A stretch of 64,000 nt of DNA from Minisyncoccota bacterium (GCA_041674925.1 JBAYUW010000002.1:13622-77621); one strand, 5' to 3'; positions 4,700-30,468 are shown, numbered from the stretch's first letter. Numbers and translations are program-made. Notes: generated by a model not told the origin, from the letters alone.

Positions 4700-4736
4700 C
4701 CTACACCAGATAGGATCCGTCGTGCAACAAGGGCGC

Positions 4737-4745
4737 TGTGGATAA
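4737..4745 (-). promoter_or_regulatory. Perfect DnaA-box-like TTATCCACA(G) motif upstream of yraN
   Basis: Plus strand reads tgtggataa. Lies 42 nt upstream of a TAGGAT box. Confidence 0.5.
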
Positions 4746-4757
4746 CCTGGCCGAGGT

Positions 4758-5387
4758 CTAGGTCTTTCTTAGGGCTAAAGTGAAAGACGGCCCATATTCG
4801 CTGTCATGAATAGTCTTATATACAACTTCAAAATAATTGCCAAGCATCCCAACTAAATCTTCCGGTTTGTATGAATAATAATATTTAGTATCGCCAAGAT
4901 TTACGATCTCCATCTCCTTATAATCTCCGTATTTGCTAGAAATATACAAAATACCTCCTATTTTTAACCATTTACCAGCTTTCTGGAGTAAAACGGCCAA
5001 ATCCTCATGTTTCATATGTAACACGGTGGCAAAAGAGAAAATAATTCCAAATTGATTATCTGAAAACTCTACTTCTCTCAAGTCTTTAACCTGAAACATT
5101 ACACGTGGAACCTTTTTTTTGGCAAAATCAATTAAACCAGCTGAAGCGTCTAATCCATTGTAATTTTCTATCCCGACTTGTGAAACTATGTATTTGGCTT
5201 CCTTGCCATTACCACAGCCAAGCTCTAATACAGCGAGCGAACCAGATTTATTAAAGTTAAACGCTCGATCTATATCATCTTTCCTAACAGCATAAGTATA
5301 AAATTTTTCAGCATAAAAAGCCGCATTTTTATCATAGGCTTCTATTGTTTTCTTGTTTTTATCTAGTTTCATATGTAACCGTTTCAC
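4758..5387 (-). CDS. Class I SAM-dependent methyltransferase
   Basis: 209 aa. Motif I VLELGCGNGKE. The track start is GTG at 5387; the ATG at 5372 (MKLDKNKK...) is an equally plausible start. Confidence 0.75.
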   Translation of the reverse strand: MKRLHMKLDKNKKTIEAYDKNAAFYAEKFYTYAVRKDDIDRAFNFNKSGSLAVLELGCGNGKEAKYIVSQVGIENYNGLDASAGLIDFAKKKVPRVMFQVKDLREVEFSDNQFGIIFSFATVLHMKHEDLAVLLQKAGKWLKIGGILYISSKYGDYKEMEIVNLGDTKYYYSYKPEDLVGMLGNYFEVVYKTIHDSEYGPSFTLALRKT

Positions 5388-5395
5388 GTGAAACG
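5380..5395. promoter_or_regulatory. 16-bp perfect palindrome CGTTTCACGTGAAACG at the 5' end of the methyltransferase gene
   Basis: The sequence is its own reverse complement. A near copy, cgtttcacgcgaaacg, lies at 4484-4499. Confidence 0.35.
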
Positions 5396-5457
5396 TTTGT
5401 TGATTTTATTGGACAAAATGGGTATAAAAGACGTCTTTTATCAACATATCCCCATAG

Positions 5458-5466
5458 TTATCCACA
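5458..5466 (+). promoter_or_regulatory. Perfect TTATCCACA(G) motif upstream of the tRNA-Gly/tRNA-Arg/cca unit
   Basis: agTTATCCACAGttt; a TAGAAT box follows 37 nt downstream. Confidence 0.5.
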
Positions 5467-5624
5467 GTTTAGACAAAATTCATAATCGAGTCTGTAGAAT
5501 AAGGGTTTTCAAAAAGACGCTATATCCCTAAACATTAAAGGACTAGCGATAGTATTGTAACATATTAAATGTTTCGCATTCAAAATTTGTAAAAAAAACA
5601 AAATTAAGTTATAGTGTTTGGGTT

Positions 5625-5695
5625 GCGGGTATGGTTTAATGGTAGAACAGGTCCTTGCCAAGGATCAGATCCGAGTCCGATTCTCGGTACCCGCA
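5625..5695 (+). tRNA. tRNA-Gly (anticodon GCC), no encoded CCA
   Basis: Acceptor GCGGGTA/TACCCGC, anticodon loop TTGCCAA, T-arm CCGAG-TCCGATT-CTCGG. Upstream TTGTAA-N17-TATAGT. Confidence 0.9.
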
Positions 5696-5723
5696 CACCG
5701 AATCGTTTATAAATTAAGTGATT

Positions 5724-5795
5724 GCTCCCATGGTGAAATGGATATCACAACGGTCTTCGGAACCGTTATTGTGGGTTCGAATCCTACTGGGGGCA
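5724..5795 (+). tRNA. tRNA-Arg (anticodon UCG), no encoded CCA
   Basis: Acceptor GCTCCCA/TGGGGGC, anticodon loop CTTCGGA, T-loop TTCGAAT. Confidence 0.9.
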
Positions 5796-5805
5796 CAAAA
5801 AGAAG

Positions 5806-7296
5806 ATGCTCAAAAAGTCTCAAAAATCGGACAACTTGAATATCCCATCTGAAGTTCTAACTGTCGTAAAAACCTTGAAAAATAAGGGTTTTGAAGCGTA
5901 TTTGATTGGTGGTTGTGTGCGCGATATTTTACTTGGGCGCAAGCCAAAAGATTGGGACGTGACGACTGACGCAGTACCGGAAGAAATAATTTCTTCATTC
6001 GAAGATACTTTTTATGAAAATAATTATGGTACGGTTGGTGTGGTAAATGAGGAGGCAAAAGATGAAACTCTAAAAGTGATTGAAGTGACTCCATATAGAC
6101 TAGAGGCGGAATATTCGGATAATAGGAGACCGGATCATGTGACTTTCAGTAAAAAACTGGAAGATGATTTGCAAAGAAGAGATTTCACAATTAATGCCAT
6201 TGCGTTTGATCCAATCGAGGAGAAATATTTCGATTACTATCAAGGACAGGATGATCTGAAAGATAAAATTCTGAGAACAGTGGGGGAACCACATGATCGT
6301 TTTACCGAGGATGGCTTGAGAATCTTGCGAGCGGTGCGAATTGCCACTGAAATTGGCTTTGAAATTGATAAAAAGACCGAAAAAGCCATAATTAGCAACG
6401 CTAATTTGCTGACCAATATCGCCAAGGAACGAATCCGAGACGAATTCGCCAGAATAGTTATGTCAGATAATCCGATGGACGGCCTTGTTTTAAGCCATAA
6501 ATTAGGCCTAATGCCCTATATTGTGCCAGAATTGGAAAAAGCCGTCAGTATTGAGCAAAGCCGGTCCCATGTTTATGATGTCTTTGAGCATAGTTTAAGG
6601 GCCTTACAGCATGCCTCTAGCAAGAAATATACTCTGGAGATGAGATTGGCCGCTCTGTTTCACGATATTGGCAAGCCAGTTTCACGACGCTGGGATAAAG
6701 GACAAAATATCTGGACCTTTTATGGGCATGAAGTGGTCGGAGCAAAAATGGTAGAAAAAATTTTAACAGATTTGAGATTTTCGAAAAAAGTAATTGAAAA
6801 AGTTGTGAAGCTGGTCCGCTGGCATATGTTTTTTGCTGACACCGAACAAATTTCTTTATCGGCAGTGCGAAGAATAATTTCTAGTGTTGGCCGTGACAAT
6901 ATTTGGGACTTAATGAATTTGCGTGGTTGTGATCGAATGGGTATGGGGCGACCAAAAGAAAGTCCATATCGTTTGCGAAAATATCATTCGATGGTGGAAG
7001 AAGCGATGACCGATCCGATTTCGGTTGGTATGCTAAAGCTGGACGGAAAGGGGATCATGGACACCACCAAAGAAGCGCCGGGTCCCAAAATAGGCTTTAT
7101 TTTACACGCTCTTTTGGAAGAAGTGCTGGATAATCCGACCTTAAATACCGAAGAATATCTCAAAAAAAGAGCCAAAGAATTAGCCAAATTGGACATTGCT
7201 GAATTACAAAAACTTGGTGAGTCTGGTAAGGAAACAAAAGAAAAAGAAGAGGAAAAAAAGATTGAAGAGATTCGTAAAAAACATTGGGTGCAATAA
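5806..7296 (+). CDS. cca: CCA-adding tRNA nucleotidyltransferase with HD domain
   Basis: 496 aa. GGCVRDILLGRKPKDWDVTT (pol-beta NTase head), RRDFTINA, HD motif LFHDIGKP. Starts 10 nt after tRNA-Arg. Confidence 0.9.
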   Translation: MLKKSQKSDNLNIPSEVLTVVKTLKNKGFEAYLIGGCVRDILLGRKPKDWDVTTDAVPEEIISSFEDTFYENNYGTVGVVNEEAKDETLKVIEVTPYRLEAEYSDNRRPDHVTFSKKLEDDLQRRDFTINAIAFDPIEEKYFDYYQGQDDLKDKILRTVGEPHDRFTEDGLRILRAVRIATEIGFEIDKKTEKAIISNANLLTNIAKERIRDEFARIVMSDNPMDGLVLSHKLGLMPYIVPELEKAVSIEQSRSHVYDVFEHSLRALQHASSKKYTLEMRLAALFHDIGKPVSRRWDKGQNIWTFYGHEVVGAKMVEKILTDLRFSKKVIEKVVKLVRWHMFFADTEQISLSAVRRIISSVGRDNIWDLMNLRGCDRMGMGRPKESPYRLRKYHSMVEEAMTDPISVGMLKLDGKGIMDTTKEAPGPKIGFILHALLEEVLDNPTLNTEEYLKKRAKELAKLDIAELQKLGESGKETKEKEEEKKIEEIRKKHWVQ

Positions 7297-7302
7297 AATT
7301 TC

Positions 7303-7492
7303 TCCATAAAAAATCACCCGAATCAGGTGTTTCATAGTCGGATGAAAGACGAGCTTCGAGTGATTGTTGAAGCCGTCCATGTTTCAGGAAGCGAGCTTCG
7401 TTGTTATGATGTGGCCAGACATCATGTGGTGAGAAAGAACATTTTTCTTCAAGGCAGAAGCTGGAGAAAATTCGCTTCGGTTACCTTGGTCT
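7303..7492 (-). ncRNA. Candidate ~190-nt small RNA of unknown class
   Basis: Bounded by a canonical minus-strand promoter (7499-7527) and a minus-strand intrinsic terminator (7307-7329). Hairpins ATGATGT-ctggcc-ACATCAT and TTTCAT-ccgact-ATGAAA. About 47 percent G+C in a hand-counted 60-nt sample. No ORF with a credible start inside the predicted transcript. Confidence 0.4.
7307..7329 (-). terminator. Rho-independent terminator (minus orientation)
   Basis: Minus strand reads CACCTG-att-CGGGTG-a-TTTTTT. The U-G wobble on the minus strand becomes a C-A mismatch on the plus strand. Confidence 0.6.
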
Positions 7493-7498
7493 GTTCTT

Positions 7499-7527
7499 AT
7501 TATATGTCCAATAGAAAATACTGTAAA
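7499..7527 (-). promoter_or_regulatory. Sigma70-type promoter TTTACA-N17-TATAAT for the candidate sRNA
   Basis: -35 at 7522-7527 and -10 at 7499-7504 (minus-strand reading). No protein gene lies downstream before the terminator. Confidence 0.5.
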
Positions 7528-7536
7528 GGACATACC

Positions 7537-7545
7537 TGTGGATAA
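7537..7545 (-). promoter_or_regulatory. Perfect TTATCCACA(G) motif upstream of the sRNA promoter
   Basis: Plus strand reads tgtggataa. The motif starts 41 nt upstream of the TATAAT. Confidence 0.5.
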
Positions 7546-7574
7546 CTTTTTTGGTCTGTCCTTTATAAAAACCC

Positions 7575-8354
7575 TTATTTTGCAAGCTCTAATAGCACCG
7601 GGCAATGATCGCTACCAAAAACATCGTTTAGGATTTCAGCTTTTTTTATTTTTTCCTTCAAATTTGACGACACGAAAAAATAATCGATGCGCCAACCGAC
7701 ATTGCGTTCACGCGCAAAAGTTTTCATATCCCACCAACTATATTTAATTTTTTCTGGATATTGAAAACGAAAAGTATCGATCCAGCCGAGAGAAGTAACT
7801 TTATCGAGCCAGTCTCTTTCGATTCTTAAAAAACCTGTGTGATTAGAATTTTCTTTTGGTCGAGCCAAATCAATTTCATTATGCGCGGTATTCACATCGC
7901 CGCAAAAAATAATTTTCTTGTTTTGCTTTTTTAATTTCTCAATATAATTTAAGAATTCCTTATAAAATTTTAGTTTGTATTCGAGACGGGCAGGATCTTC
8001 ACCGCCATTAGGGAAATAGCAGTTGATCAGTGTAAAACCCTTTAAATGCAAGGCTAAAAAGCGCCCCTCCTGATCTAGCTCTTTTTTGCCAAAACCATAA
8101 TCGACAGATAAAATCTCTTTCTCCAAATCTTTTTTTAAAAATATTGCGACACCACTATAACCCTTTCGGACTTTTGAATGATCAAAAAAAGAAAAATATC
8201 CAGCGGGATTTTTTATTTCTTCTGGCAACTGATCGGGGTGTGCTTTAGTTTCTTGCAAGCAAAAAATATCCGAATCAAGTTCAAAAAGTTGATTCCATTT
8301 ATCTTTTTTCACAATCGCCCGTAGGCCGTTTACATTCCAAGATAATATTTTCAT
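7575..8354 (-). CDS. xth: Exodeoxyribonuclease III (AP endonuclease)
   Basis: MKILSWNVNGLRA..., ...GSDHCPV. The track start at 8372 is TTG. The ATG at 8354 is preceded by TGgTATTAT-N6. Confidence 0.9.
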   Translation of the reverse strand: MKILSWNVNGLRAIVKKDKWNQLFELDSDIFCLQETKAHPDQLPEEIKNPAGYFSFFDHSKVRKGYSGVAIFLKKDLEKEILSVDYGFGKKELDQEGRFLALHLKGFTLINCYFPNGGEDPARLEYKLKFYKEFLNYIEKLKKQNKKIIFCGDVNTAHNEIDLARPKENSNHTGFLRIERDWLDKVTSLGWIDTFRFQYPEKIKYSWWDMKTFARERNVGWRIDYFFVSSNLKEKIKKAEILNDVFGSDHCPVLLELAK

Positions 8355-8374
8355 AAAAGAATAATACCACAAAA

Positions 8375-9274
8375 CTAGCTTTTATTATGAAACTTTTTAT
8401 GAGTTTCACGCAAATGTTTGTCGGTTACGTGAGTGTAAATTTGGGTCGTGATGATACTTGAATGACCAAGCATGGTCTGAACTGAGCGAATATCGGCACC
8501 GTTACTGAGCAAATCGGTGGCAAAAACGTGCCGGATGACGTGGGGGGTGACCTTTTTGGTAATGCCAGCGATCGTTGCATAGCGTTTGACGATCCTCTCA
8601 ACAGAACGACTAGTCAAACCTTTGGCTTTCCCAGATACTTTTTGGCCGAGGCGTGTCTTGTCGATTGTCACAAACAAAGCCTCAGACAAATCCTGACGCA
8701 AAGCTAAATACTCTTTGATAATTTTTTTTGCTTCATCTGAAAGAAAAACCACTCGCACCCGACCACCTTTACCACGAATAGAAAATTCATCGAGATTCAG
8801 ATCCAAGTCAGTATTTAATGAGCAAAGTTCGGACACGCGCAGGCCGGTGGAGAAGAGGAGCTCTAAAATAGCCTTATCTCTGGCTCTTCTTTCTGGATTT
8901 TGTTCTTGGTTTGGTGCATCAAGTAAGCGCCTCAATTCTTTTAAAGAAATCAAATCAATCGATCTTTCACCGACTTTGGCTAGTTCAATATTATCCGCCG
9001 GTAGAGAAACAACTCCACGTCTGGCAAGAAATTTTAAAAACACCCTCAGGGCGATCAAATAATAATTCTGGGTTTTTTTATTTAAATTACGGCGATTCAA
9101 CCACAGACGAAATTCCCGAATTTTTTCGTTAGTGATATCTTTGGGGTTGGTAATCTCGGCTTGTTTGAAGAAAAAAGACAAATAACGATTGTATCGATCA
9201 ACAGTTTTGATGGCGCGGCCTTTTTCAATTTCAAGATATTCTAAAAATTGCGTTTTGAGTTCTTTCAGGTCCAT
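8375..9274 (-). CDS. Tyrosine site-specific recombinase XerC/XerD-like
   Basis: 299 aa. C-terminal HVIRHVFATDLL..GADIRSVQTMLGHSSIITTQIYTHV. Confidence 0.85.
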   Translation of the reverse strand: MDLKELKTQFLEYLEIEKGRAIKTVDRYNRYLSFFFKQAEITNPKDITNEKIREFRLWLNRRNLNKKTQNYYLIALRVFLKFLARRGVVSLPADNIELAKVGERSIDLISLKELRRLLDAPNQEQNPERRARDKAILELLFSTGLRVSELCSLNTDLDLNLDEFSIRGKGGRVRVVFLSDEAKKIIKEYLALRQDLSEALFVTIDKTRLGQKVSGKAKGLTSRSVERIVKRYATIAGITKKVTPHVIRHVFATDLLSNGADIRSVQTMLGHSSIITTQIYTHVTDKHLRETHKKFHNKS

Positions 9275-9332
9275 AAATAACAGTATAGCACGAGCCCTTG
9301 CATTTTTAAAAGAAATGTGCTAGACTTCTCAA
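9275..9332. promoter_or_regulatory. 58-bp divergent promoter region giving leaderless xerC-like and rpsO transcripts
   Basis: Minus: TGcTATACT (9282-9287) then N7 then ATG at 9274. Plus: TTGCAT-N17-TAGACT (9321-9326) then N6 then ATG at 9333. Confidence 0.55.
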
Positions 9333-9593
9333 ATGCTTACAAAAACCAAAAAAGCTAAGGTTATAAAGGAAGTGGCTGTTCACGAAGGCGATACCGGCTC
9401 GACCGATGTGCAAATCGCTGTTTTGTCGAAAAGAATTGATGAATTAGCTTCTCATTTAAAGAAAAACCCAAAGGATAATCACTCACGCCGAGGTTTACTT
9501 GGTATGGTGGCTGATCGCCGAACTCATCTTAAATATTTAGAGAAAAGCAATCCAAAACGTTACGCTTCGGTTGTTAAAAAGTTGGGTCTCTAA
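9333..9593 (+). CDS. rpsO: 30S ribosomal protein S15
   Basis: 86 aa. GDTGSTDVQIAVLSKRI..L..HLK.NPKDNHSRRGLL.MV..RR..L.YL. Confidence 0.95.
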   Translation: MLTKTKKAKVIKEVAVHEGDTGSTDVQIAVLSKRIDELASHLKKNPKDNHSRRGLLGMVADRRTHLKYLEKSNPKRYASVVKKLGL

Positions 9594-9673
9594 TTTTTTA
9601 GCCTTTTAATATGTTACAATGTAAGCACGGTCGAGGCTTATTTACTTTTTAATAATTCTTAATAATTTTTTAT

Positions 9674-10198
9674 ATGTTAATCAAACACAAAGATCAAAGA
9701 GTTGGTATTTTTATTGATACCCAAAATATCTATCACTGCGCCAAAAATTTATACGGAGCGAAAGTCAATTTTGCTCAAGTCGTCAAAGACGCCTTGGCTG
9801 GCCGATCATTGATCCGAGCGATTGCCTATGTTATCACCACTGAAAGTGGCGATGAAAAAGGTTTTTTTGAAGCCCTAACTAAAGCGGGAATTGAGACAAA
9901 AACCAAAAATTTGCAAATCTTCGCTGGCGGCGCTAAAAAAGCCGACTGGGATGTCGGTCTCGCTGTCGATGCCATCAAAATGGCGCCCAAGCTTGATACA
10001 GTTATCATCGTATCTGGCGATGGCGACTTCGTTCCTTTAGTAGAGTACTTAAAGATGAACGAGGGTTGCCAAGTCGAAGCTTTATGCTTTGGCAAGAGTA
10101 CTTCTGCCAAATTAATCGAGGTTGTCGATGGTTTCACCGATCTCGATGAAAATGCTCGTAAATATTTACTCGGTTCAGTTGGAGGAAGGGGAAGATAA
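9674..10198 (+). CDS. NYN/LabA-like (DUF88) domain protein
   Basis: 174 aa. VGIFIDTQNIYH ... IIVSGDGDFVPLVEYLK. Confidence 0.8.
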   Translation: MLIKHKDQRVGIFIDTQNIYHCAKNLYGAKVNFAQVVKDALAGRSLIRAIAYVITTESGDEKGFFEALTKAGIETKTKNLQIFAGGAKKADWDVGLAVDAIKMAPKLDTVIIVSGDGDFVPLVEYLKMNEGCQVEALCFGKSTSAKLIEVVDGFTDLDENARKYLLGSVGGRGR

Positions 10199-10223
10199 TA
10201 CTATCCAAACAAAACCCTCGCAC

Positions 10224-10232
10224 TTATCCACA
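10224..10232 (+). promoter_or_regulatory. Perfect TTATCCACA(G) motif upstream of the ORF6N gene
   Basis: TTATCCACAG-N20-TGaTAGTAT-N9-ATG(10272). Confidence 0.5.
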
Positions 10233-10271
10233 GGTGTGTATTTTTTGTATACGTGATAGTATGTCGGCGTT

Positions 10272-10784
10272 ATGAAAAACACTGCACTTGTTTCACTCGA
10301 CAATATCGAGACGAAAATATATTTTATTAGAGGAAAGAAGGTAATGTTAGATAGTGATCTGGCTTTTTTGTACCAAGCTGAAACAAAACACCTTAAGAGA
10401 GCAGTAAAAAGAAACATGGGGAGGTTTCCGGTGGATTTCATGTTCACATTAAATAAACTGGAAGCTGACAACTTAAGGTACCAAATTGGCACCTTAAGTT
10501 GGGGTAAGCATAAAAAGTATTTGCCATATGTTTTCACTGAACAGGGTGTCGCCATGCTATCTAGCGTCTTAAAAAGTGAGCGGGCGATTCAGGTGAATAT
10601 TCAAATTATGCGGACTTTTACTAAGATCAGAGAGATGCTTGCTAGTAATAAAGAACTCCGAGAGAAAATAGAAAAATTAGAGAAGAAATATGATAAAAAT
10701 TTCGCCATTGTCTTTGATGCTATCAAAAACCTCGTCACGGAAAAAGAAAAACCAAAAACAGAGATGGGGTTTAGGCTAAAATAA
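10272..10784 (+). CDS. ORF6N-domain DNA-binding protein
   Basis: 170 aa. IRGKKVMLDSDLAFLYQAETKHLKRAVKRNMGRFPVDFMF is the typical ORF6N signature. Confidence 0.75.
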   Translation: MKNTALVSLDNIETKIYFIRGKKVMLDSDLAFLYQAETKHLKRAVKRNMGRFPVDFMFTLNKLEADNLRYQIGTLSWGKHKKYLPYVFTEQGVAMLSSVLKSERAIQVNIQIMRTFTKIREMLASNKELREKIEKLEKKYDKNFAIVFDAIKNLVTEKEKPKTEMGFRLK

Positions 10785-10926
10785 ATAATCCGAACGACCT
10801 TTTTTTATAGGTAGTTTTATGCTACTCTAATTTCAGCTATTTATTAACCGATTTGCCGGGGGATATGCAGTTTGGAACCTCGAGTTCTGATCTGAAATCT
10901 TCTGACAAGTCTAATTTTATAAAAAG

Positions 10927-13044
10927 ATGAAAAAACAAGAGTTTTCGGTGGAGCTTAATGGTAAAAAATTAAGCGCCGAGTTTAGCGATTTGGTGGAAAA
11001 TGCCAGCGGATCGGTAATTTTGCGTTATGGCAATACTACTATTCTAGCTACAGCCGTAATTAGTAAGGACAGTATTGATAAAGATTATTTACCTTTAACG
11101 GTTGATTATGAAGAAAAATTCTATGCTTCTGGTCAAATCCTCGGTAGCCGTTTCATGAAGCGTGAAGGTAAACCATCCGACGAAGCTATTTTATCTGGCC
11201 GAGTTGTGGATCGAACCATCCGCCCACTATTTGATCAATGGATCAGAAATGAAATTCAAGTCGTTGTGACCATTCTTTCAATCGAAGAAGATGATCCCGA
11301 TGTACTCGCGGTAATCGCGGCGTCCTTGGCTTTGGGTGTGTCAAAAATTCCTTTCCATGGTCCAGTTTCGGCTATTAGAATTGGCAAACACAAGACTGAT
11401 GGTTTTGAAATCAACCCAACTTACACCGAAAGAGAAAATGAAAACTTTGAAATTGATTTGATTGCTTGTGGTAAAGATGGAAATATCAATATGATTGAGT
11501 TAGGGGGTGATGAAGCTCAAGAAAGCGTGATTATCGAGGCGATGAAAAAAGCTTCGGAGGAAATTGAAAAATTAAATGCTTGGCAAAAAGAAGTAATTGC
11601 TAAGATTGGTGTGCCAAAAATGAAACTAGAAGCGCCGGTCATGCCAGAAGAGATTAAAAACCTTTTTGCGACAGAAATCGAACCGAAATTAGAGAGCTAT
11701 GTCATGAGCGGACTTCCTGGCGGGTCAAAAATCGGCGAGATTATGGATATCTGGATGAAATTAGCGAAAGAAAAATGTTCTGATATTAAATCTTCTTTTG
11801 CTGAACATCTTTTTGAAGAAAAAGTGGACGCTTTGATTCACGAGCAAGTCTTGAAACACGACAAACGTGCCGACGGTCGTGGTATTGATGAAATTCGACC
11901 CTTGTTTGCTCAAGCGGGAGGAATTTCTCCAATTCTACACGGTTCTGGAATCTTTTACCGCGGTGGAACTCACATTTTGACGGCTTTGACTTTGGGTGGA
12001 CCAAGTGATGCTCAAATCATAAATGGTATGGAAGAGAGTAGCGATGGAAAAAAATTCATGCATCATTACAATTTCCCACCATATTCAACTGGTGAAACAG
12101 GGAAGATGGGTGGTACCAATCGCCGAATGATTGGTCACGGTGCTTTGGCGGAAAAAGCTTTACAACCGATGATTCCAAAAACAACCGATTTCCCTTACAC
12201 GATCAGATTGGTTTCCGAAGCCATGTCTTCGAACGGCTCGACTTCAATGGGTTCGGTTTGTGCTTCGACGATTGCCTTGATGGACGGTGGGGTGCCGATT
12301 AAATCACCGGTGGCCGGTATTGCTTCTGGTTTGATGATGGATGATAAAGGAAATTACAAAGTTTTAACTGATATTCAAGGTCCGGAAGATCATTACGGTG
12401 ATATGGATTTTAAAGTCGCTGGTACTAAAAATGGCGTGACGGCAATTCAGATGGATGTGAAAGTTTCTGGCGTACCAATCCCCGCACTAGCTGAAGCTTT
12501 TGAAAAAGCCAAAACTGCTCGCTTGAAAATTCTTGATGTTATTATAAAAGAAATTGCTGAGCCAAGAAAAGATATTTCTGTTAATGCACCAAAAATTGTG
12601 GTCTTGAAAATTAAACCAGATCAAATCGGTGGAGTGATTGGCTCGGGTGGAAAAGTGATTAAAGAAATCAAAGAAAAAACTGGCGCTGATATTGATATTG
12701 AAGATGATGGAACTATTTATTGTACCGGTAAAGATGGTAGCGCCGAAAGAGCGAAGGCGGTGATTGAAGCTATGACTCATGAATATAAACCAGGGGAGAG
12801 ATATGAAGGAACAGTGACCAAAATTGCTGAATTCGGGGCCTTTGTTCGACTCCAGGGCGACACCGAAGGCTTGGTACACATTTCCGAGATCGCGCCTTTC
12901 CGAGTGGAGAAAGTTGAAAGCTTGCTCAAGGCTGGTGACAAAGTGCCGGTCATTGTGAAGGAAGTCGATCCAGAAAGAGGACGCATTGCTCTCTCCATAA
13001 AAATGGCCGACCCAGATTTTGCGAAAAATAAATTGGGAAAATAG
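10927..13044 (+). CDS. pnp: Polyribonucleotide nucleotidyltransferase (PNPase)
   Basis: 705 aa. Two RNase PH-like halves plus KH (GGVIGSGGKVIKEI) and S1 (GTVTKIAEFGAFV) domains. Confidence 0.95.
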   Translation: MKKQEFSVELNGKKLSAEFSDLVENASGSVILRYGNTTILATAVISKDSIDKDYLPLTVDYEEKFYASGQILGSRFMKREGKPSDEAILSGRVVDRTIRPLFDQWIRNEIQVVVTILSIEEDDPDVLAVIAASLALGVSKIPFHGPVSAIRIGKHKTDGFEINPTYTERENENFEIDLIACGKDGNINMIELGGDEAQESVIIEAMKKASEEIEKLNAWQKEVIAKIGVPKMKLEAPVMPEEIKNLFATEIEPKLESYVMSGLPGGSKIGEIMDIWMKLAKEKCSDIKSSFAEHLFEEKVDALIHEQVLKHDKRADGRGIDEIRPLFAQAGGISPILHGSGIFYRGGTHILTALTLGGPSDAQIINGMEESSDGKKFMHHYNFPPYSTGETGKMGGTNRRMIGHGALAEKALQPMIPKTTDFPYTIRLVSEAMSSNGSTSMGSVCASTIALMDGGVPIKSPVAGIASGLMMDDKGNYKVLTDIQGPEDHYGDMDFKVAGTKNGVTAIQMDVKVSGVPIPALAEAFEKAKTARLKILDVIIKEIAEPRKDISVNAPKIVVLKIKPDQIGGVIGSGGKVIKEIKEKTGADIDIEDDGTIYCTGKDGSAERAKAVIEAMTHEYKPGERYEGTVTKIAEFGAFVRLQGDTEGLVHISEIAPFRVEKVESLLKAGDKVPVIVKEVDPERGRIALSIKMADPDFAKNKLGK

Positions 13045-13064
13045 GGTCGGATTTATCCACAGTT
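13030..13064 (+). repeat. Direct-repeat copy 1 (last pnp codons + stop + TTATCCACAG motif)
   Basis: 13030-13046 aaattgggaaaataggg recurs at 13586-13602. 13038-13064 recurs at 14720-14746 with 26/27 identity. Confidence 0.8.
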
Positions 13065-13100
13065 TTCATTTCATTGAAATCCTGATAGGATACTGGCGCT

Positions 13101-13494
13101 ATGCAAATTGATTTTGATAAGTGGAACGAAATTAAAAAAGAAATTGAAACAAAATTCGACCCGCCGCCAACTTTTCCTAAAATTGGCGAGGTGTGGATGA
13201 TTAGCCTTGGTCGCAATATTGGTTTTGAGCAAAACGGAATCGGCCTAAACTTCTCTCGCCCTGTCTTGGTGGTCAAAAAATTTAACAATAAGATGTTTTG
13301 GTGTGTGCCACTATCAACTAAGCAAAAGCAGATTGATTTTTATTTTAACTTTACCGATCCAAACAACCAAAAAAGTTTCAGCAATTTTAGCTCAAATGAA
13401 ACTAGTTAGTATTAAGAGGTTTAGAAGAAATTTGTACGAATTAGATTTATCAAATTTCGGGGAAATAAAGACTAAGCTAAAATCGTTTCTTTAA
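13101..13494 (+). pseudogene. PemK/MazF-family toxin homolog split by a frameshift in an A6 run
   Basis: Frame 0 reads GEVWMISLGRNIGFEQNG...RPVLVV... up to 13409. Frame +1 continues VSAILAQMKLVSIKRF...EIKTKLKSFL to 13494. The frames join at aaaaaa 13369-13374; A5 would give one intact 130-aa ORF. Confidence 0.7.
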
Positions 13495-13503
13495 CTAGTC
13501 GAA

Positions 13504-13527
13504 AGCCGCCATCACTGGCGGCTTTCT
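13504..13527 (+). terminator. Hairpin terminator after the mazF-like gene
   Basis: AGCCGCC-atcact-GGCGGCT followed by ttct (weak U tract). Confidence 0.45.
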
Positions 13528-13585
13528 CGGAGCCTTTCGGCACTTTGTAAATTTAGTATAGCAAAGTGGATATAAAAGTCAACAA

Positions 13586-13602
13586 AAATTGGGAAAATAG
13601 GG
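13586..13602 (+). repeat. Direct-repeat copy 2 (17 nt identical to the pnp 3' end)
   Basis: aaattgggaaaataggg, identical to 13030-13046. Confidence 0.8.
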
Positions 13603-13627
13603 AAATTCGGTTATAATAGAGGCAGAT

Positions 13628-14716
13628 ATGCCTCCCGATGAAAATAAAAATAATTCTAATTTCAGTCCATTAAAAGTGGGGATTGATCCGATTTTTAAAA
13701 ACAGTCAAACCAAGACTGAGCCACCTGTCAGCAATAGTGCTTTTGGGGTGTTAAATAATCAACAATACACACCAACCGCCAATCCTATTCCAAATCAAAT
13801 TCCTAATCAAACGACTTTTCCAAAAAAGTCTTTAATTAGGACCTATAAAGGAGACATCGAATCCACCGTTCAAGCCGACCATGTCTCATCGGTTAATATT
13901 GCCATTGCCGAAAATGAAAAGATGCGGGGAAAATTGGAGTCGGGTGAGGTCGTAAATATTCAGACAGAAAATAAGGCTGAGTATTCCAAAAGCAAAATAA
14001 TCATTTTTGTCAGTTTAATTTTGGTCGTTGTCGCAATCGTTGGAATCGGTGTCACCTTGTTTCTTAAAAATAAAACCAGCAGTACGACGGTTGCAACTCA
14101 AACTATACCGACTTTGATTACCACTGAGTATAAAGATGAACTGAATACCGTTGGTCTAAATAAAAATCAGTTTGTGACGACCTTGTCTGGAAAATTAAAT
14201 GATATCAGAATCCCGGTTAATAATTTTTATAATACTTATGTCACGACTGGCACTAGCACGAGCAAAAGGCTAATTACAGCCCAAGAATTCGTGACCCTGT
14301 CTGGACTAAGAATGCCAGACCAAATAAAGAGAACCCTTTTGCCAGATTTTATGGTTGGGATGTTTTCCTTTGATGAAAATATGCCTTTTGTAATTTTTAA
14401 AACTTCTTATTTCGAAAATACTTTCGCGGGCATGTTGGCCTGGGAAAAAGATCTGGAAAAAGATTTTCAAGTTTTATTCCGTCTCAATGGTCTCACTAGT
14501 GGAGGATTATTAGCTGACCTTTCTCCCACAACCGCCAAAAAATTTGAGGACAGTGTGATCATTAATAAAGACGTACGGCAACTAAAAGATACTGATGGAA
14601 ACGTAATTTTGCTTTACAGTATTCTCGACAAGGATACCCTGGTCATCACCACCGACGAAGAAGCTTTTAAGGCGATTGTAGATAGGATAAACAAGGAAAA
14701 GAGCCTAAAAAGGTAA
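13628..14716 (+). CDS. Hypothetical single-pass membrane protein
   Basis: 362 aa. Q/N/P-rich N-terminus, one hydrophobic helix IIIFVSLILVVVAIVGIGVTLFL, no recognisable motif. Confidence 0.65.
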   Translation: MPPDENKNNSNFSPLKVGIDPIFKNSQTKTEPPVSNSAFGVLNNQQYTPTANPIPNQIPNQTTFPKKSLIRTYKGDIESTVQADHVSSVNIAIAENEKMRGKLESGEVVNIQTENKAEYSKSKIIIFVSLILVVVAIVGIGVTLFLKNKTSSTTVATQTIPTLITTEYKDELNTVGLNKNQFVTTLSGKLNDIRIPVNNFYNTYVTTGTSTSKRLITAQEFVTLSGLRMPDQIKRTLLPDFMVGMFSFDENMPFVIFKTSYFENTFAGMLAWEKDLEKDFQVLFRLNGLTSGGLLADLSPTTAKKFEDSVIINKDVRQLKDTDGNVILLYSILDKDTLVITTDEEAFKAIVDRINKEKSLKR

Positions 14717-14719
14717 GAA

Positions 14720-14746
14720 AAAATAGGGTCCGATTTATCCACAGTT
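14720..14746 (+). repeat. Direct-repeat copy 3 including a perfect TTATCCACAG motif (14735-14744)
   Basis: aaaatagggtccgatttatccacagtt versus 13038-13064 (one mismatch). Followed by N20-TGgGATACT. Confidence 0.8.
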
Positions 14747-14803
14747 GTGTTTATTTTTTAATTCTGGGATACTTATACACATATCAGCAATAATAAAAAC
14801 AAC

Positions 14804-15163
14804 ATGTCACAAGACCTAGAAAAGTACAAGAAGTTGCTCGAGGCAGAGAAAGTAAAATTAGTAAAAGAATTGGAAACGGTCGGACGAATTAATCCGGAAA
14901 ATCCAAAAGATTGGGAAGCGACGGAAACCAGTCTGGATGCCGATTCGGCGGATGAAAATGAGGTGGCCGATGAGCTCGAAGAATTTGAAGGTAATTCAGC
15001 GATTTTGAAACAACTTGAGGTTCAACTGATTTCTGTTGAAAGTGCTTTGCAAAAGATAGAAGATGGAACTTACGGTCAGTGTTCAGTTTGTGAAGGAAAA
15101 ATTCCAGAAGATAGATTAAAAGCTAATCCTTCTGCCACGACTTGTGTAGAACATAGCAAGTAG
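14804..15163 (+). CDS. DksA/TraR-family zinc-finger protein
   Basis: 119 aa. Acidic coiled-coil N-terminus and C-terminal GTYGQCSVCEGKIPEDRLKANPSATTCVEH. Confidence 0.75.
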   Translation: MSQDLEKYKKLLEAEKVKLVKELETVGRINPENPKDWEATETSLDADSADENEVADELEEFEGNSAILKQLEVQLISVESALQKIEDGTYGQCSVCEGKIPEDRLKANPSATTCVEHSK

Positions 15164-18542: not shown

Positions 18543-18702
18543 AATTGAGGTAGTTGTCGAGACGGGAAATCAGCCGAAACACCAGAAGACGGACCAAAAC
18601 AAGTTAAACTACCTACCGAGACAGAATAGCAAAAAATGACCCAAAAATCAACGATTTTGGTGGTTGCCTGTGGATATCTTTATCTGTGTTATAATCAACC
18701 GA

Positions 18703-20598
18703 ATGGAACATTTAAAAGGCTTAAATGACAAGCAAAAAGAGGCAGTTTTATACCAAAATGGCCCTCTTTTGATCTTGGCGGGGGCAGGAGCGGGAAAGAC
18801 TAAAACCGTCACAACACGTATAACCCATCTTATCAAGACTGGTGTCGAACCCAAGAGCATTTTGGCGATTACTTTTACTAATAAGGCCGCTAAGGAGATG
18901 CGAGAGCGATTAATGTTGCCTCAAACAGGGGAAAGGCCTTTTGTGAGCACTTTTCATGCCTTAGGAGTCCACATTCTTAAAGAAAATGTCAGAGAAATCG
19001 GTTTGACTAGACACTTTTCTATTTTCGACAAGAGTGATTCCCAAAAAACCGTCCGTGATATCATTCGTGATTTAGGTTTGGATCCAAAACAGCATGAACC
19101 TGGTAAATATTTAAGTATAATCTCCCGCGAAAAGGGCAATCTGAAAACAGTGGAGGATTTTAATACGACGAATCAGAATGAACTGATTGGTCGAGTTTGG
19201 GCGGCTTATGAAAAAAAATTAAAGGAAGGAAAAGCTCTGGATTTTGACGATTTACTACTTAAAACCTATAAACTTCTAAAAAACAAGCCAGAAATTCTGC
19301 AAAGATATCAGCAAATCTGGACTTATATTCACGTCGATGAATATCAAGACACCAATCAGGTTCAGTATATGATTACCAAACTACTAGCCGAAAAAAACCG
19401 AAATATTTGTGTCGTCGGAGATATTGATCAGAATATCTACAGTTGGCGAGGCGCGGATATTAAAAATATTTTGCATTTTGAAAAAGATTATCCCGAGGCC
19501 AAGATCATTTTACTTGAAGAAAACTATCGCTCAACACAAAATATTCTCGCCGTCGCTAATGCTATTATTAAAAAGAATGTTAATAGGGTAGAGAAAAATC
19601 TTTTCACTAAAAATGCCGAGGGTGAAAAACTGACGCTCTATACCGGCTTTAACGAAAACGAGGAATCACATTTCATTGCTAATAAAAGTAAAGAATTGAT
19701 TGCCTCGGGTGTCGAACCTAGAAATATTGCCGTTTTGTATCGTGCTAATTTTCAATCCAGAGCGATCGAGGAAGCATTTTTGACCAAAAGTGTGCCTTAT
19801 CAAGTCCTGGGAACAAAGTTTTTTGAGAGAAAAGAGGTGAAAGATATAATTTCTTTCCTTCGCGCGGGATTGAATCCTGACAGTTTAACCGATATTAAAA
19901 GAATTATTAATGTGCCGGCTCGAGGTATCGGTAAAGTTACTATTTTAAAAATATTTAGTGGTGAGAGAGAGAGTTTGCCAGCTGGAACAAAAATAAAGAT
20001 AAATCAGTTTTTTAATCTATTAACCGAAATCGGAAAAGTTGCTTTAGAAAAAAAGCCTTCTGAAGTTATTCAATTTATTATCAAAGAAAGTGGTATTGAA
20101 AAAGATCTGAAAGATAGCAATGATGAAGACAAAGAAAGACTGGAAAACATGAGGGAATTAGCCACTTTGGCGATAAAATACGACTATTTACCGATCGGTG
20201 AAGGGATTGAAAAATTAATCGAAGAAGCGGCGCTGGCGACCGATCAAGATAGCCTAGAAAAAAATGATAATGCTGTAAAATTAATGACGGTGCACGCTTC
20301 AAAAGGCTTGGAGTTTGATTATGTTTTTATTACCGGCCTTGAAGAAGGATTGTTTCCCCACGAAAGAATGAATGCTGGGAAGAATAAAGATGATGGGGAA
20401 GAAGAAAGGCGACTATTTTACGTTGCCCTGACCCGTGCCAAGAAAAAAATCTTCTTAACCAATGCCAACAGCCGAACAATTTTTGGTTCGTCTCAGATCT
20501 GCATACCGTCGCAATTTATTTCTGATATTGATGAGGAATTTCTTGAAACAGACGAGACATTTGAATATCGGGAGAAAATAATATATCTTGAACTATAG
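18703..20598 (+). CDS. pcrA: UvrD/PcrA-type ATP-dependent DNA helicase
   Basis: LNDKQKEAV, AGAGAGKTKT, VDEYQDTN, TVHASKGLEF. The track start at 18664 is TTG. The ATG at 18703 is preceded by TGtTATAAT-N7. Confidence 0.9.
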   Translation: MEHLKGLNDKQKEAVLYQNGPLLILAGAGAGKTKTVTTRITHLIKTGVEPKSILAITFTNKAAKEMRERLMLPQTGERPFVSTFHALGVHILKENVREIGLTRHFSIFDKSDSQKTVRDIIRDLGLDPKQHEPGKYLSIISREKGNLKTVEDFNTTNQNELIGRVWAAYEKKLKEGKALDFDDLLLKTYKLLKNKPEILQRYQQIWTYIHVDEYQDTNQVQYMITKLLAEKNRNICVVGDIDQNIYSWRGADIKNILHFEKDYPEAKIILLEENYRSTQNILAVANAIIKKNVNRVEKNLFTKNAEGEKLTLYTGFNENEESHFIANKSKELIASGVEPRNIAVLYRANFQSRAIEEAFLTKSVPYQVLGTKFFERKEVKDIISFLRAGLNPDSLTDIKRIINVPARGIGKVTILKIFSGERESLPAGTKIKINQFFNLLTEIGKVALEKKPSEVIQFIIKESGIEKDLKDSNDEDKERLENMRELATLAIKYDYLPIGEGIEKLIEEAALATDQDSLEKNDNAVKLMTVHASKGLEFDYVFITGLEEGLFPHERMNAGKNKDDGEEERRLFYVALTRAKKKIFLTNANSRTIFGSSQICIPSQFISDIDEEFLETDETFEYREKIIYLEL

Positions 20599-24297: not shown

Positions 24298-25290
24298 ATG
24301 GAAAAGTATTTGCCCTCCAAAAAATTCTTATACATAATTGGTTCAATTATTTTGGCCATCTTAATCGTCTGGGGTGTCCCAGTTTTACTAAAAAAACAAG
24401 TCGAAAAACCACTTTCACAACAAACGACAGGTGCCGAACAAAGCGCAAAGATTCAAGAGTTTTTAGCGACTGATACCGATAGTGATGGTTTACGAGATTG
24501 GGAGGAAACCCTCTGGAAAACCGATCCACAAAATACCGACACTGATGGTGACAAAACTAGTGATTTTGAAGAAGTAAAAATTAACCGAGATCCCACCAAA
24601 GCGGCGCCGGGGGATGAAATCGACGAAAAAATTATTGCTAGTCAGCAGCAAAGAGAGGCTGAGTATAATAAATTAACCGAGACTGAAAAATTATCTCGCC
24701 TTCTTTTTTCTCAATATGTTGTCTCCAAACAGGGGGATGAATTAAATCAAACCGATAAACAATTAATCCTAGATTCAGTAATTTTAAACACTAATAGTAG
24801 TGGTATACAAAGTTATACTTTATCGGACATAAAAATAGTCGACGACAACAGCACGTCCACTATCAAAAATTATGTTAATCAGTTGGGTGTTGTCTTAGAT
24901 AATAACAAAAATGAAGAACGTATATATGAATTGAATGTATTAAACGACGCCATTAATAAAAATGACGCCAAGGAATTGTCAAAGCTTGATCCAATTGTTG
25001 GGTCCTATAGAAGCACTGTTGCTGGTTTTCTTTCTGTTACTGTTCCAAGAGAACTGGCGAATTTGCATCTAGATATTGTTAATAACACCTCAAAAATTGG
25101 TTTCAGTATCGAAACTTTCAAGTATTTATATAGCGACACCCTCAAGGCGGTGAATGGCTTGGCTACTTACAAAAAATCTACCACTGATATAATCCAAAAT
25201 ATTACTAATCTAAAAAAATATTTGGAAATAAAGAATGTGGTATTAGTTGAAAGTGATCCTGGATATAAATTAATAAATGTTATAAAATAA
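24298..25290 (+). CDS. Membrane-anchored protein with thrombospondin type-3-like Ca-binding repeats
   Basis: 330 aa. N-terminal TM, then DTDSDGLRDWEE...DPQNTDTDGDKTSDFEE. TGgTATAAT-N6-ATG start context. Confidence 0.7.
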   Translation: MEKYLPSKKFLYIIGSIILAILIVWGVPVLLKKQVEKPLSQQTTGAEQSAKIQEFLATDTDSDGLRDWEETLWKTDPQNTDTDGDKTSDFEEVKINRDPTKAAPGDEIDEKIIASQQQREAEYNKLTETEKLSRLLFSQYVVSKQGDELNQTDKQLILDSVILNTNSSGIQSYTLSDIKIVDDNSTSTIKNYVNQLGVVLDNNKNEERIYELNVLNDAINKNDAKELSKLDPIVGSYRSTVAGFLSVTVPRELANLHLDIVNNTSKIGFSIETFKYLYSDTLKAVNGLATYKKSTTDIIQNITNLKKYLEIKNVVLVESDPGYKLINVIK

Positions 25291-25294
25291 AGTC

Positions 25295-27061: not shown

Positions 27062-27146
27062 ATTAGGGAATAAAAGCGTTATAATTTGACATAGTACCCA
27101 AATTTTGCTAAATTAGGATAGTTAGGTATCCTAATTTAATAAAAAT

Positions 27147-28271
27147 ATGATAGTAAGAATACTAGAAAACCAAATAAAGGAAGCCCTCTTTAAAGGTAAA
27201 ATTATTGTCTTGTACGGAGCCAGACAAGTTGGTAAGACCACTATTCTAAAAAAAATAGCCCAAGAAAACAAGGATCAATCTATGTTTTTAAATTGCGACG
27301 AATTAGATGTTCGCCAAGCCCTGACTGACAAAACGTCCATCGAATTAAAAAGGTACTTGGGAGACAAAAAATTAATATTAATAGATGAGGCTCAAAGAAT
27401 AAGGGATATTGGGCTAACTCTGAAACTCCTAATCGACACTTATCCAGAGATTCAGGTGATCGCCAGTGGCTCATCAAGTTTTGATTTGGCTAATAAAGTA
27501 AATGAACCCTTAACTGGCCGTAAAACAGAATTTTTCTTATTCCCAATTTCCTTGAATGAATTACGTGCTAGTCACAATGAAATTGAGATGGATAGTCTAA
27601 TCAACCATTTATTAATTCGTGGCTCATACCCAAAAGTCATCACTAGTGAAAGTAATACTCTGGCCGAAACGACTATAAATGAAATTACTGGCAGTTATCT
27701 CTATAAGGATATTCTGCAATTTGAAGGTTTAAAGAAACCAGACTTGATTGAGAAGCTTTTGCAAGCGCTGGCGTTTCAACTTGGTCAAGAAGTCTCTTTT
27801 ACTGAATTATCCAGATTATTAAATACTAACAGGAAAACAATAGAAAAGTATGTTTCTCTTCTAGAAAAAGCCTTCGTTATTTTCCGCTTAAATCCCCTAA
27901 GTCGAAACTTGCGAAAGGAAATTGGTAAAAATAAAAAAATATACTTTTACGATCTTGGGGTTAGAAATAGTATAATCCAAAATTTTAATGAGGTGGGGAT
28001 TAGAAATGACCTTGGGGCTTTGTGGGAAAATTTTATGGTTGTCGAGAGGATGAAAAAAAATTACTATGGAAATAATAAGCCAAATATTTTCTTCTGGCGC
28101 ACCTATGATCAGAAAGAGATAGATTATATCGAGGAAAGCGGTGGAAAGATGAGTGGATTTGAATTTAAATGGTCTGATCAAAAATGGAAAAAGCCGTTAG
28201 GCTTTTTGGAGTCATATCAAGATAGTACCGCCACCTTGATTACGAAGAAAAATTACACCGATTTTGTATAG
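27147..28271 (+). CDS. AAA-type ATPase with DUF4143-like C-terminal domain
   Basis: 374 aa. Walker A GARQVGKTT, Walker B LILIDEAQ. Overall AAA_14 + DUF4143 layout judged by eye. Confidence 0.75.
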   Translation: MIVRILENQIKEALFKGKIIVLYGARQVGKTTILKKIAQENKDQSMFLNCDELDVRQALTDKTSIELKRYLGDKKLILIDEAQRIRDIGLTLKLLIDTYPEIQVIASGSSSFDLANKVNEPLTGRKTEFFLFPISLNELRASHNEIEMDSLINHLLIRGSYPKVITSESNTLAETTINEITGSYLYKDILQFEGLKKPDLIEKLLQALAFQLGQEVSFTELSRLLNTNRKTIEKYVSLLEKAFVIFRLNPLSRNLRKEIGKNKKIYFYDLGVRNSIIQNFNEVGIRNDLGALWENFMVVERMKKNYYGNNKPNIFFWRTYDQKEIDYIEESGGKMSGFEFKWSDQKWKKPLGFLESYQDSTATLITKKNYTDFV

Positions 28272-30462: not shown

Positions 30463-30468
30463 AATAAC

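Follow-up and report, generated by a model that had tools for sequence, protein, structure and literature searches.

Promoter-associated DnaA boxes around a parS-like site in a Paceibacteria genome and their possible role in transcription

DnaA boxes between the genes of a Paceibacteria genome

We have analyzed a 64-kb window of DNA (64,000 nucleotides; GCA_041674925.1, JBAYUW010000002.1:13622-77621) from the metagenome-assembled genome of a bacterium of the Paceibacteria in the candidate phyla radiation (CPR). The part of interest carries yraN, a methyltransferase gene, a tRNA-Gly, genes for an NYN and an ORF6N protein, pnp encoding PNPase, a PemK-like toxin gene, a gene for a DksA-like protein and the divergently oriented uvrD and LysM-M23 peptidase genes; dnaA lies further downstream (Table 1). 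Between these genes we find perfect copies of the DnaA box TTATCCACA and of its extended form TTATCCACAG, and the present work deals with the question of whether DnaA uses these boxes as a transcription factor. The sites are named here by the first position of the 9-mer (4737, 5458, 7537, 10224, 13053 and 14735); 5458 and 7537 belong to site classes A and B, respectively, a seventh, imperfect box represents class C, and the other four are referred to as the young sites.

Table 1. Boxes, promoter elements and genes of the window that are discussed in the text
Feature	Position	Strand	Remarks
Perfect 10-mers TTATCCACAG	4736-4745, 5458-5467, 7536-7545, 10224-10233, 13053-13062, 14735-14744	-, +, -, +, +, +	
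Two other perfect 9-mers	3586; 40139	-; +	inside a gene; in the dnaA-dnaN spacer
Box upstream of yraN (UPF0102)	4736-4745	-	TAGGAT 4703-4698; probable GTG start 4690
parS-like palindrome CGTTTCACGTGAAACG	5380-5395		about 60 nt from class A box; putative ParB centromere site
M2 palindrome TAAAAGAC/GTCTTTTA	5425-5440		directly abuts class A boxes
Third box TTATCAACA	5438-5446		overlaps class A double box
Class A double DnaA box	5446-5467	+	ATATCCCCA-TAG-TTATCCACAG
Candidate non-coding RNA, ~185 nt	7308-7492	-	class B promoter; predicted intrinsic terminator (stem 7329-7315 and T-run)
Class B promoter (predicted)	7499-7532	-	TTTACA 7527-7522, 17-nt spacer, TATAAT 7504-7499
Class B DnaA box	7536-7545	-	about -53..-44 of promoter; 4 nt upstream of tandem M2
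Inverted M2 copy beside class B	7558-7565		
NYN-downstream box	10224-10233	+	N20, then TGaTAGTAT (10254-10262), ORF6N ATG 10272
Post-pnp box	13053-13062	+	N20, TGaTAGGAT 13083-13091, ATG 13101
Box upstream of DksA-like gene (14804-15163)	14735-14744	+	N20, TGgGATACT 14765-14773
Class C DnaA box ATATCCACAG, one mismatch	18668-18677	-	divergent uvrD / LysM-M23 peptidase region
DnaA gene	38627-39973		all Pfam DnaA domains; protein matches solved DnaA structures
DnaA-box clusters flanking dnaA	38549-40147	+	

For comparison, 80 related loci (1.22 Mb; L001 and so on, the window being W) were retrieved with the PNPase of the window (10927-13044). All of them are from Patescibacteria, mostly Paceibacteria, Campbellbacteria and relatives, and together with the window they form a clade set of 1.28 Mb, about 84% of it coding. 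The closest relative is a 115-kb contig of the Joint Genome Institute (JGI), present as the stretches L082 and L083, with a DnaA 95% and a PNPase 93% identical to those of the window. Expectations in the window come from dinucleotide-preserving shuffles, and promoters are predicted -10 and -35 boxes throughout.

The boxes are far more frequent than expected: The 9-mer TTATCCACA occurs eight times in the window against 0.61 expected, a number that none of 100 shuffles reaches, the 10-mer TTATCCACAG six times against 0.14, and tolerating one mismatch gives 15 matches as compared to an expectation of 3.75. None of the six 10-mers falls within a gene, and each lies upstream of promoter-like sequence. 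This confirms what a first-pass annotation of the window had reported, i. e. six perfect 9-mers in the first 15 kb that are all intergenic and extend to the 10-mer. In the clade set, 68 copies of the 9-mer are intergenic and 13 genic, and for the 10-mer the numbers are 41 and 1. When words were ranked by their intergenic enrichment in this set without any prior choice of motif, (A)GTTATCCACAG(T) came first, and the extended box AG-TTATCCACA-G was the top 9- and 10-mer. Permuted 9-mers of matched composition have a mean of 1.8 intergenic copies (maximum 10) as compared to 63 for the box, and in these 63 intergenic boxes the consensus extends beyond the core, with A(-2) in 46/63, G(-1) in 37/63, G(+10) in 37/63 and T(+12) in 40/63 (a mutated form of the box TTATCCACAG is written TTATGGACAG). 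Chance as the origin of the excess is thus ruled out by the shuffles and the permuted motifs, and judged by these comparisons, the motif is a true DnaA box that is associated with promoters and under selection.

The distances between boxes and predicted promoters are defined as well. At 10224, 13053 and 14735 the arrangement is exactly TTATCCACAG-N20-TGn-hexamer with the hexamers TAGTAT, TAGGAT and GATACT, respectively, just as the first-pass annotation had it. At the other three sites it had placed a -10-like box 37-42 nt from the start of the motif, and we measure, with the first base of the motif as offset 0, 42 nt to TAGGAT at 4737, 41 nt to TATAAT at 7537 and 37 nt to TAGAAT at 5458. The three N20 spacers are unrelated in sequence yet equal in length, which argues for selection on the geometry.

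Conserved site classes and young sites

Comparison with the related loci identifies classes A, B and C as ancient and conserved at orthologous promoters across the clade. The layout of class A, two boxes 3 bp apart followed by G, is present in at least 15 relatives. In the window, the class A spacer has four boxes, one of them perfect, and a GC content of 30%, and it is located at the raw G-C minimum. The 45-nt block of the M2 motif (see below) and the boxes is 100% identical to that of the closest relative, whereas the flanks differ by substitutions and indels. No known RNA was matched in this spacer. In the relatives, class A always adjoins the 5' end of a divergent gene of about 130 amino acids; tblastn was applied to 15 class A loci and identified it as yraN in 12 of them. 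In the window and in the closest relative, class A and yraN have become separated by the insertion of a methyltransferase gene. On this side lies also the parS-like palindrome, which matches the 16-bp parS palindrome tGTTTCACGTGAAACa in 14 of 16 positions and has a perfect core, GTTTCACGTGAAAC being the published parS core. The relatives have one to ten parS copies each, always adjoining class A or B boxes, either upstream of yraN or in arrays of up to about ten copies spaced by about 90-100 nt (as in L054 1697-2700 and L065 26-931). There is no parB gene in the window. The palindrome precedes the start codon of the methyltransferase gene by about 10 nt; this codon is more likely ATG 5372 than the GTG 5387 of the ORF caller, which falls within parS. 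As for the idea of the first-pass annotation that all boxes are oriented toward a downstream unit, promoter-like sequence does follow each of the six, but the conserved partner of the 5458 box is on the opposite side, in parS and yraN: no promoter after this box is conserved, and that of the tRNA-Gly is about 120 nt away.

In class B, the box is found 9 nt upstream of TTTACA-N17-TATAAT. With 11 of 12 consensus positions matched, this is the best sigma-70-like promoter between 4.5 and 19 kb. The -35 element TTTACA is provided by the M2 repeat TGTCCTTTACA, two tandem copies of M2 spanning the -35 element and the spacer. The composite of a box (0-1 mismatch) and GTCCTTTA 4-6 nt after it was found at 29 sites from 28 sources, the full TGTCCTTTA motif beginning 3-5 nt after the box; the consensus is AgTTATCCACA..taTGTCCTTTACAtgtctTtta, with M2 at the fixed offsets +13 and +24 from the start of the box. 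The class B promoter would drive a candidate non-coding RNA that folds better than shuffled sequences (z = -3.75) and has conserved helices in the alignment of W, L003 and L004, the three closest genomes. Its sequence diverges fast, nhmmer finding just the three closest copies, and searches of Rfam with the window and seven loci gave no match at gathering or permissive thresholds. Its conserved core consists of GTTCTTT, a hairpin and GAAGCTCGG...CCGGCTTC. A 6S RNA was considered and rejected, as the fold is not rod-shaped, and so was a DnaA-trio unwinding element after the box, where no in-phase trios are seen.

Class C concerns the spacer between uvrD and the LysM-M23 peptidase gene. On the peptidase side, the box is 17 nt upstream of TTGATT(18651-18646)-N17-TATTCT(18628-18623) on the minus strand, and on the other side it covers about -34..-25, and thus the -35 region, of the uvrD promoter TGtTATAAT (18687-18695; ATG 18703, which is probably the uvrD start rather than 18664). 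Of 41 orthologous uvrD/pcrA spacers, 32 have a box with no more than one mismatch, the baseline for spacers of 150-300 nt being 22%. The distance to the -35 box of the peptidase gene is 16-18 nt in twelve spacers, 6-8 nt in five and, with the box inverted, 4-5 nt in eight. On these predicted promoters, this is a helical-phase pattern as it is typical of a transcription factor site. This seventh, imperfect member was missing from the six sites of the first-pass annotation, and the conserved uvrD/M23 peptidase pair from its list of targets.

The second-ranked intergenic-enriched word of the clade, (A)TGTCCTTTAYA, is referred to here as M2 (duplex form TGTCCTTTACATGTCCTTTATA); 79 of its 120 intergenic copies are within 80 nt of a DnaA box. 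It occurs as a palindrome, as an inverted pair or as 11-bp tandem repeats. In the window, intergenic M2 is confined to classes A and B (5425-5440, 5536-5543, 7524-7531, 7558-7565), and class C and the four young sites are devoid of it. Inspection of the sequence gave no match to known CtsR, Spo0A, Noc or LexA-type sites. Another recurrent non-coding word, (AT)GGCTnAAAATAAGG / AATAAGGGTTTT, is found near DnaA boxes of several classes: in the window at 5497-5510, 5880-5892 and 7568-7586, in the uvrD spacers of L003, L004 and L006, and in the class A spacers of L012, L018, L020 and L040.

The four young sites have a different history. The orthologous spacers in L001-L007 lack their boxes. The closest relative has the NYN-downstream (L083 9183) and the DksA-like (L083 13935) box and lacks the yraN-site and the post-pnp box; thus, 10224 and 14735 are shared only with this relative, and 4737 and 13053 are unique to the genome studied here. 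(i) The 4737 box came with an insertion of 52 nt upstream of a pre-existing putative promoter element of yraN; in the closest relative, this TAG..TCGGCG element is found without the insertion and without a box. The start codon of yraN is more likely GTG 4690 than ATG 4699, which falls within the TAGGAT hexamer. (ii) The 10224 box is the exact 10-nt loop of a terminator-like hairpin (10219-10238) that is decayed in the window; the hairpin of the relative (L083 ~9174-9201) is strong, with a CCCCCGCAC/GTGCGGGGG stem and a T-run. The gene that follows encodes ORF6N in the window and RelB/YafQ in the closest relative, and in L005 and L010 ORF6N is present and a box of this type is absent. (iii) The 13053 box heads an inserted cassette of 556 bp (13047-13602) with a frameshifted PemK-like toxin gene; the cassette, which is absent from all relatives compared, has direct repeats of 18-22 nt, AAAATTGGGAAAATAGGG, on either side (within 13025-13046 and 13581-13602). 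The reading frame of the PemK/MazF-like gene apparently runs from 13101 to 13409 and continues in 13303-13494; the cassette has its own terminator at about 13500-13530 and no obvious antitoxin gene. (iv) The DksA-like module at 14735 (box-N20-TGGGATACT) and its counterpart in the closest relative (L083 13935) share about 95% identity. In place of this module, L001, L004, L005 and L007 have a box-less intergenic region, in L004 and L007 with a TGcTATTAT promoter at the position of the module.

Three of the young sites belong to a 47-nt repeat family (10209-10255, 13038-13084, 14720-14766). In addition, 13053 and 14735 have AAAATAGGGTCSGATTTATCCACAGTT in common, and 4737, 10224 and 13053 share TAGKATNNNGGCG just before the start codon. 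A search of JGI metagenomes for the young module TAGGGTCNGATTTATCCACAG returned one unrelated chance match only, and inspection of the sequences gave no match to the consensus of integron attC or dif-like recombination sites. The slots between the NYN gene and pnp (window 10199-10926; L083 9159-10000) and between pnp and the next gene (window 13045-13627; L083 12131-12828) differ in their small accessory genes between the two closest genomes, the latter slot containing a PemK-like gene in the window and a DUF6580 gene in the relative. They look like hot spots of cassette exchange and are near a gene for a XerC-like recombinase (8375-9274). Taken together, the gain of regulatory sites appears to be visible step by step in a single lineage: two are shared with the nearest relative, and of the two unique ones, one came in a 52-nt insertion and one with an inserted gene cassette. 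Many promoters in the window, and likewise in the relatives, have an extended -10 element (TGnTAnnnT) whose hexamer is followed by the start codon at a distance of only 7-12 nt (for example 13611-13630, 18687-18705, 10254-10274 and 13083-13103); their mRNAs would therefore be leaderless or nearly so, without a Shine-Dalgarno sequence.

Which protein recognizes the boxes? The segments KPRQ, SYPTIG and GGKDHTTVMH of the DnaA encoded in the window align to domain IV of the E. coli protein, and equivalents of its base-contacting residues R399, P423, D433, H434, T435 and H439 are kept in the alignment. At dnaA itself, the promoter contains TTATAAACA-ac-TTATCAACA, a double box with a 2-bp spacer, as well as a third box, TTTTCCACA. 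The gene order is jag-yidC-rnpA / dnaA-dnaN, and the dnaA-dnaN spacer (39974-40191; 19% GC) has five boxes; TTATCCACAA in this region is kept in the closest relative. In E. coli, sites bound in chromatin immunoprecipitation sequencing read '..ACAgagTTATCCACAg' at oriC and datA, and they are mostly pairs of boxes 2-3 bp apart (PMC11317965). Since flanks and pair geometry equal those of the E. coli sites, the same core recurs in the dnaA region and the motifs of domain IV are conserved, DnaA is probably the binder, and the most parsimonious one, another factor being unlikely; of the two possibilities left by the first-pass annotation, DnaA or a factor of the same specificity, the exact core, the conserved domain IV residues and the E. 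coli-like flanks favor the first.

A further match, TTTTCCACAG, at the 3' end of ruvC (45523-45532, minus strand) is conserved in the closest relative (L082 16871-16880, minus strand) and is located about 10 nt upstream of a TTGACC-N17-TATTAA promoter of a 58-aa acidic open reading frame (45289-45465, minus strand); it may be another member of the set of boxes. Between the pnp region and jag-yidC-rnpA-dnaA there is a 12.5-kb block of plus-strand genes (24298-36788) resembling type IV secretion systems (PrgI, a TraG/VirB4-like ATPase, a type IV secretion pilin), which is shared with the closest relative.

Transcription control and its alternatives

The boxes adjoin or overlap a predicted promoter in class B, on both sides in class C and at the three N20 sites, and with moderate confidence we regard DnaA acting as a transcription factor as the best reading of this arrangement. 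According to this idea, DnaA would bind the TTATCCACAG boxes via its C-terminal helix-turn-helix domain, binding would alter the use of the adjacent promoter by RNA polymerase, and the expression of a small set of genes would follow the amount of active DnaA, i. e. the replication status. The old core of this set would comprise the ~185-nt RNA, the yraN/parS/tRNA region, the uvrD / LysM-M23 pair and dnaA itself. Recent additions would be the four young boxes, which precede promoters of the extended -10 type whose leaders are very short, with yraN, the accessory slot after the NYN gene, the toxin cassette and the DksA-like gene as targets. In class C, a single box would lie both on the -35 region of uvrD and, by one or two turns of the helix, ahead of the -35 box of the peptidase gene. 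Our guess is repression for uvrD, where the box covers the -35 region, and activation at 10224, 13053 and 14735, where the promoters are weak, lack a -35 box and have the DnaA box directly next to the -35 position. The class B box would be located where an upstream element or the alpha C-terminal domain acts, next to a near-consensus promoter and M2. Activation and repression cannot be told apart from the sequence.

The proposals of the first-pass annotation can be judged in this light. It had placed the motif center near -40, the class II activator position, which on the predicted -10 boxes fits 10224, 13053 and 14735; the centers of the other sites are elsewhere, at about -49, -57, -47 and -30, and the boxes of the conserved sites span about -53..-44 in class B, -61..-53 or -51..-43 at the M23 peptidase gene and -34..-25 at uvrD. 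A regulon of DnaA gains support from the conservation of boxes at promoters throughout the clade, but the members that had been named are mostly lineage-specific: the candidate RNA and the yraN/parS region are conserved, and the boxes at the ORF6N, toxin and DksA-like genes are absent from L001-L007. Conservation in related genomes, which had been named as a check, is thus found for 5458 and 7537, extends to the closest relative only for 10224 and 14735, and is not seen for 4737 and 13053.

Several observations speak against a role in transcription. For four of the six sites, conservation ends with the closest relative at the latest, and the genes behind the young sites have no common function. 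Similarly, no common function was found among the lineage-specific box-linked genes of the relatives, which encode Lcl_C-domain proteins, NUDIX, homoserine-dehydrogenase-like and XerC proteins and proteins without an assigned function. One box, at 10224, coincides with the loop of a terminator hairpin. As judged by inspection of the flanks, five of the six sites in the window are single boxes, and in E. coli most isolated perfect boxes are unbound in vivo, pairs being preferred (PMC11317965). Classes A and B are accompanied by M2 as a second motif. The distance between box and promoter varies between the classes, so that there is no single mechanism. Finally, all sites are at most 10 kb from parS, and titration of DnaA could explain selection on the boxes without any effect on transcription.

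This last point leads to the strongest alternative, a role in the control of replication: the boxes could be an origin-proximal set that titrates or remodels DnaA, like datA and DARS or the clusters of B. subtilis, or the class A/B locus could be part of the origin, and their position at promoters would merely reflect that intergenic DNA is the free space of a compact genome. That the boxes are far from oriC, as had been assumed in the first-pass annotation, is doubtful with parS about 60 nt from the 5458 box. parS sites are markers of origin-proximal DNA, and the boxes seem to be in a centromere-like, origin-proximal domain because parS adjoins class A and its arrays are beside class A or B in the relatives. 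All six perfect boxes are within -0.7 to +9.4 kb of parS, with none in the other 49 kb except for the dnaA region. The box-3 bp-box layout of class A is that of datA, DARS and oriC sites, and the B. subtilis clusters, which restrain initiation, are likewise in intergenic or promoter DNA (PMC3245932). The raw cumulative G-C curve of the window is lowest at 5.5 kb, and gene orientation diverges at the class A locus in 15 loci. However, the skew tracks gene orientation and is confounded by it: a GC3/AT3 comparison over the 15 loci gave mixed results, and a break-point regression on the third-codon-position skew of the window, with coefficients of about 1-1.5 standard errors everywhere, is without power to place the origin. 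The dnaA-dnaN spacer, with its five boxes, low GC content and jag-yidC-rnpA/dnaA-dnaN context, is the conventional origin candidate, although no turn of the skew is seen there. Moreover, titration predicts neither fixed registers between box and -35 element with 10-bp phasing nor the conservation of whole box-plus-promoter modules, and the parS array of L054, read by eye, has no further boxes. We therefore consider replication control as the sole function of the boxes unlikely, even if it is the alternative to be taken most seriously; the two roles are not mutually exclusive.

It is tempting to speculate even further that the parS/M2/double-box locus and the box-M2-M2 promoter with its RNA form a control center for replication initiation in the Paceibacteria, possibly the true origin, tens of kilobases away from dnaA. 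The TGTCCTTTAYA repeats would then be read by a further protein, the RNA would take part in the control of initiation or segregation, and the young boxes would be recruits to a ParB/DnaA origin domain. We regard this as a long shot.

Duplication is an improbable explanation: the local excess might be a by-product of modules copied together with accessory cassettes, the box being functionless at the young sites. The 47-nt repeat family that joins three of these sites, AAAATAGGGTCSGATTTATCCACAGTT common to two and TAGKATNNNGGCG common to three, the direct repeats flanking the toxin cassette, the slots that differ in the closest relative and the 52-nt insertion with the 4737 box are in line with such copying. 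However, the box-to-(-10) spacers of 10224 and 13053 are only about 45% identical yet of the same length, no part of the 47-nt family other than the box is fully invariant, and elsewhere, in the JGI metagenomes, TAGGGTCNGATTTATCCACAG was met only as a chance match. Copying of cassettes can also not account for the three conserved classes, which extend over 80 genomes. Least probable is that a factor other than DnaA reads AGTTATCCACAGnT, alone or with an M2-binding protein, with the likeness to DnaA boxes being coincidental or competitive: conservation reaches beyond the 9-mer, M2 at +13 and +24 in class B and abutting class A suggests a composite site, and single boxes are weak DnaA targets in vivo in E. 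coli, but the same flanks are found at proven E. coli DnaA sites (PMC11317965), the 9-mer core is the exact DnaA consensus and recurs in the dnaA promoter and the dnaA-dnaN spacer, the specificity residues of DnaA are conserved, class C and the four young sites are without M2, and no candidate for the alternative protein has been identified.

Comparison with known DnaA regulons

CPR bacteria, or Patescibacteria, have very small genomes with few recognizable transcription factors, and their regulation is almost uncharted. Searches of the literature turned up no study of their DnaA boxes. If DnaA indeed acts at the promoters described here, the boxes define a concrete and testable regulon, consisting of an unannotated RNA, uvrD, a LysM-M23 cell-wall hydrolase, the yraN region and dnaA, and thus a plausible link between replication status, repair and division; M2 as a second motif and the candidate new RNA are further leads. 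The GTTTCACGTGAAAC palindrome beside class A has the canonical core of ParB-parS regions, and the relatives have arrays of it. A conserved arrangement in which parS is combined with both a double DnaA box and a third motif is not known to us, and a search of the literature for such a coupling within about 90 bp gave no report.

In B. subtilis, the DnaA regulon includes dnaA, sda, ywlC, yydA and other genes. The oriC-proximal clusters of DnaA boxes in this bacterium have been described by Okumura et al. 2012 (PMC3245932). As in the window, these boxes are outside oriC, in intergenic or promoter DNA and mostly close to the origin; they have a dual role in the transcription of neighboring genes and the restraint of initiation, as the boxes of the window may have, and in both cases, the known or putative targets include functions in DNA metabolism, cell division or the cell wall. 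In contrast, the sites of B. subtilis are clusters of many boxes, whereas here it is mostly a single perfect box in a defined promoter register, the target genes differ, and the sites of the CPR bacterium are known from their sequence alone.

In E. coli, double DnaA boxes are present at oriC, datA, DARS1/2, nrdA, polA, purH, mioC and dnaA (PMC11317965). The core and flanks are identical to those found here (..ACA-gag-TTATCCACA-g), class A has the same box-3 bp-box arrangement, and in both organisms boxes precede or overlap promoters of genes for replication and repair. Isolated boxes are mostly unbound in E. coli, whereas in classes B and C it is the single box that is conserved, and the class B box is paired with M2 rather than with a second box as in the E. 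coli pairs.

DnaA of Caulobacter crescentus is a cell-cycle transcription factor that controls gcrA, ftsZ and podJ. The likeness is that boxes in promoters would couple initiation to genes of cell division, in our case the one for the LysM-M23 peptidase; box consensus and targets are different, and to our knowledge, the dedicated network of cell-cycle regulators of Caulobacter has no counterpart known in CPR genomes. Thus, DnaA as a regulator and boxes outside the origin are already established for E. coli, B. subtilis and Caulobacter, and the finding of such boxes is, as far as we found in earlier reports, new for this phylum. Less ordinary are the composite of a single box and M2, the unannotated RNA, the tight coupling of parS to a double box and the stepwise gain of boxes.

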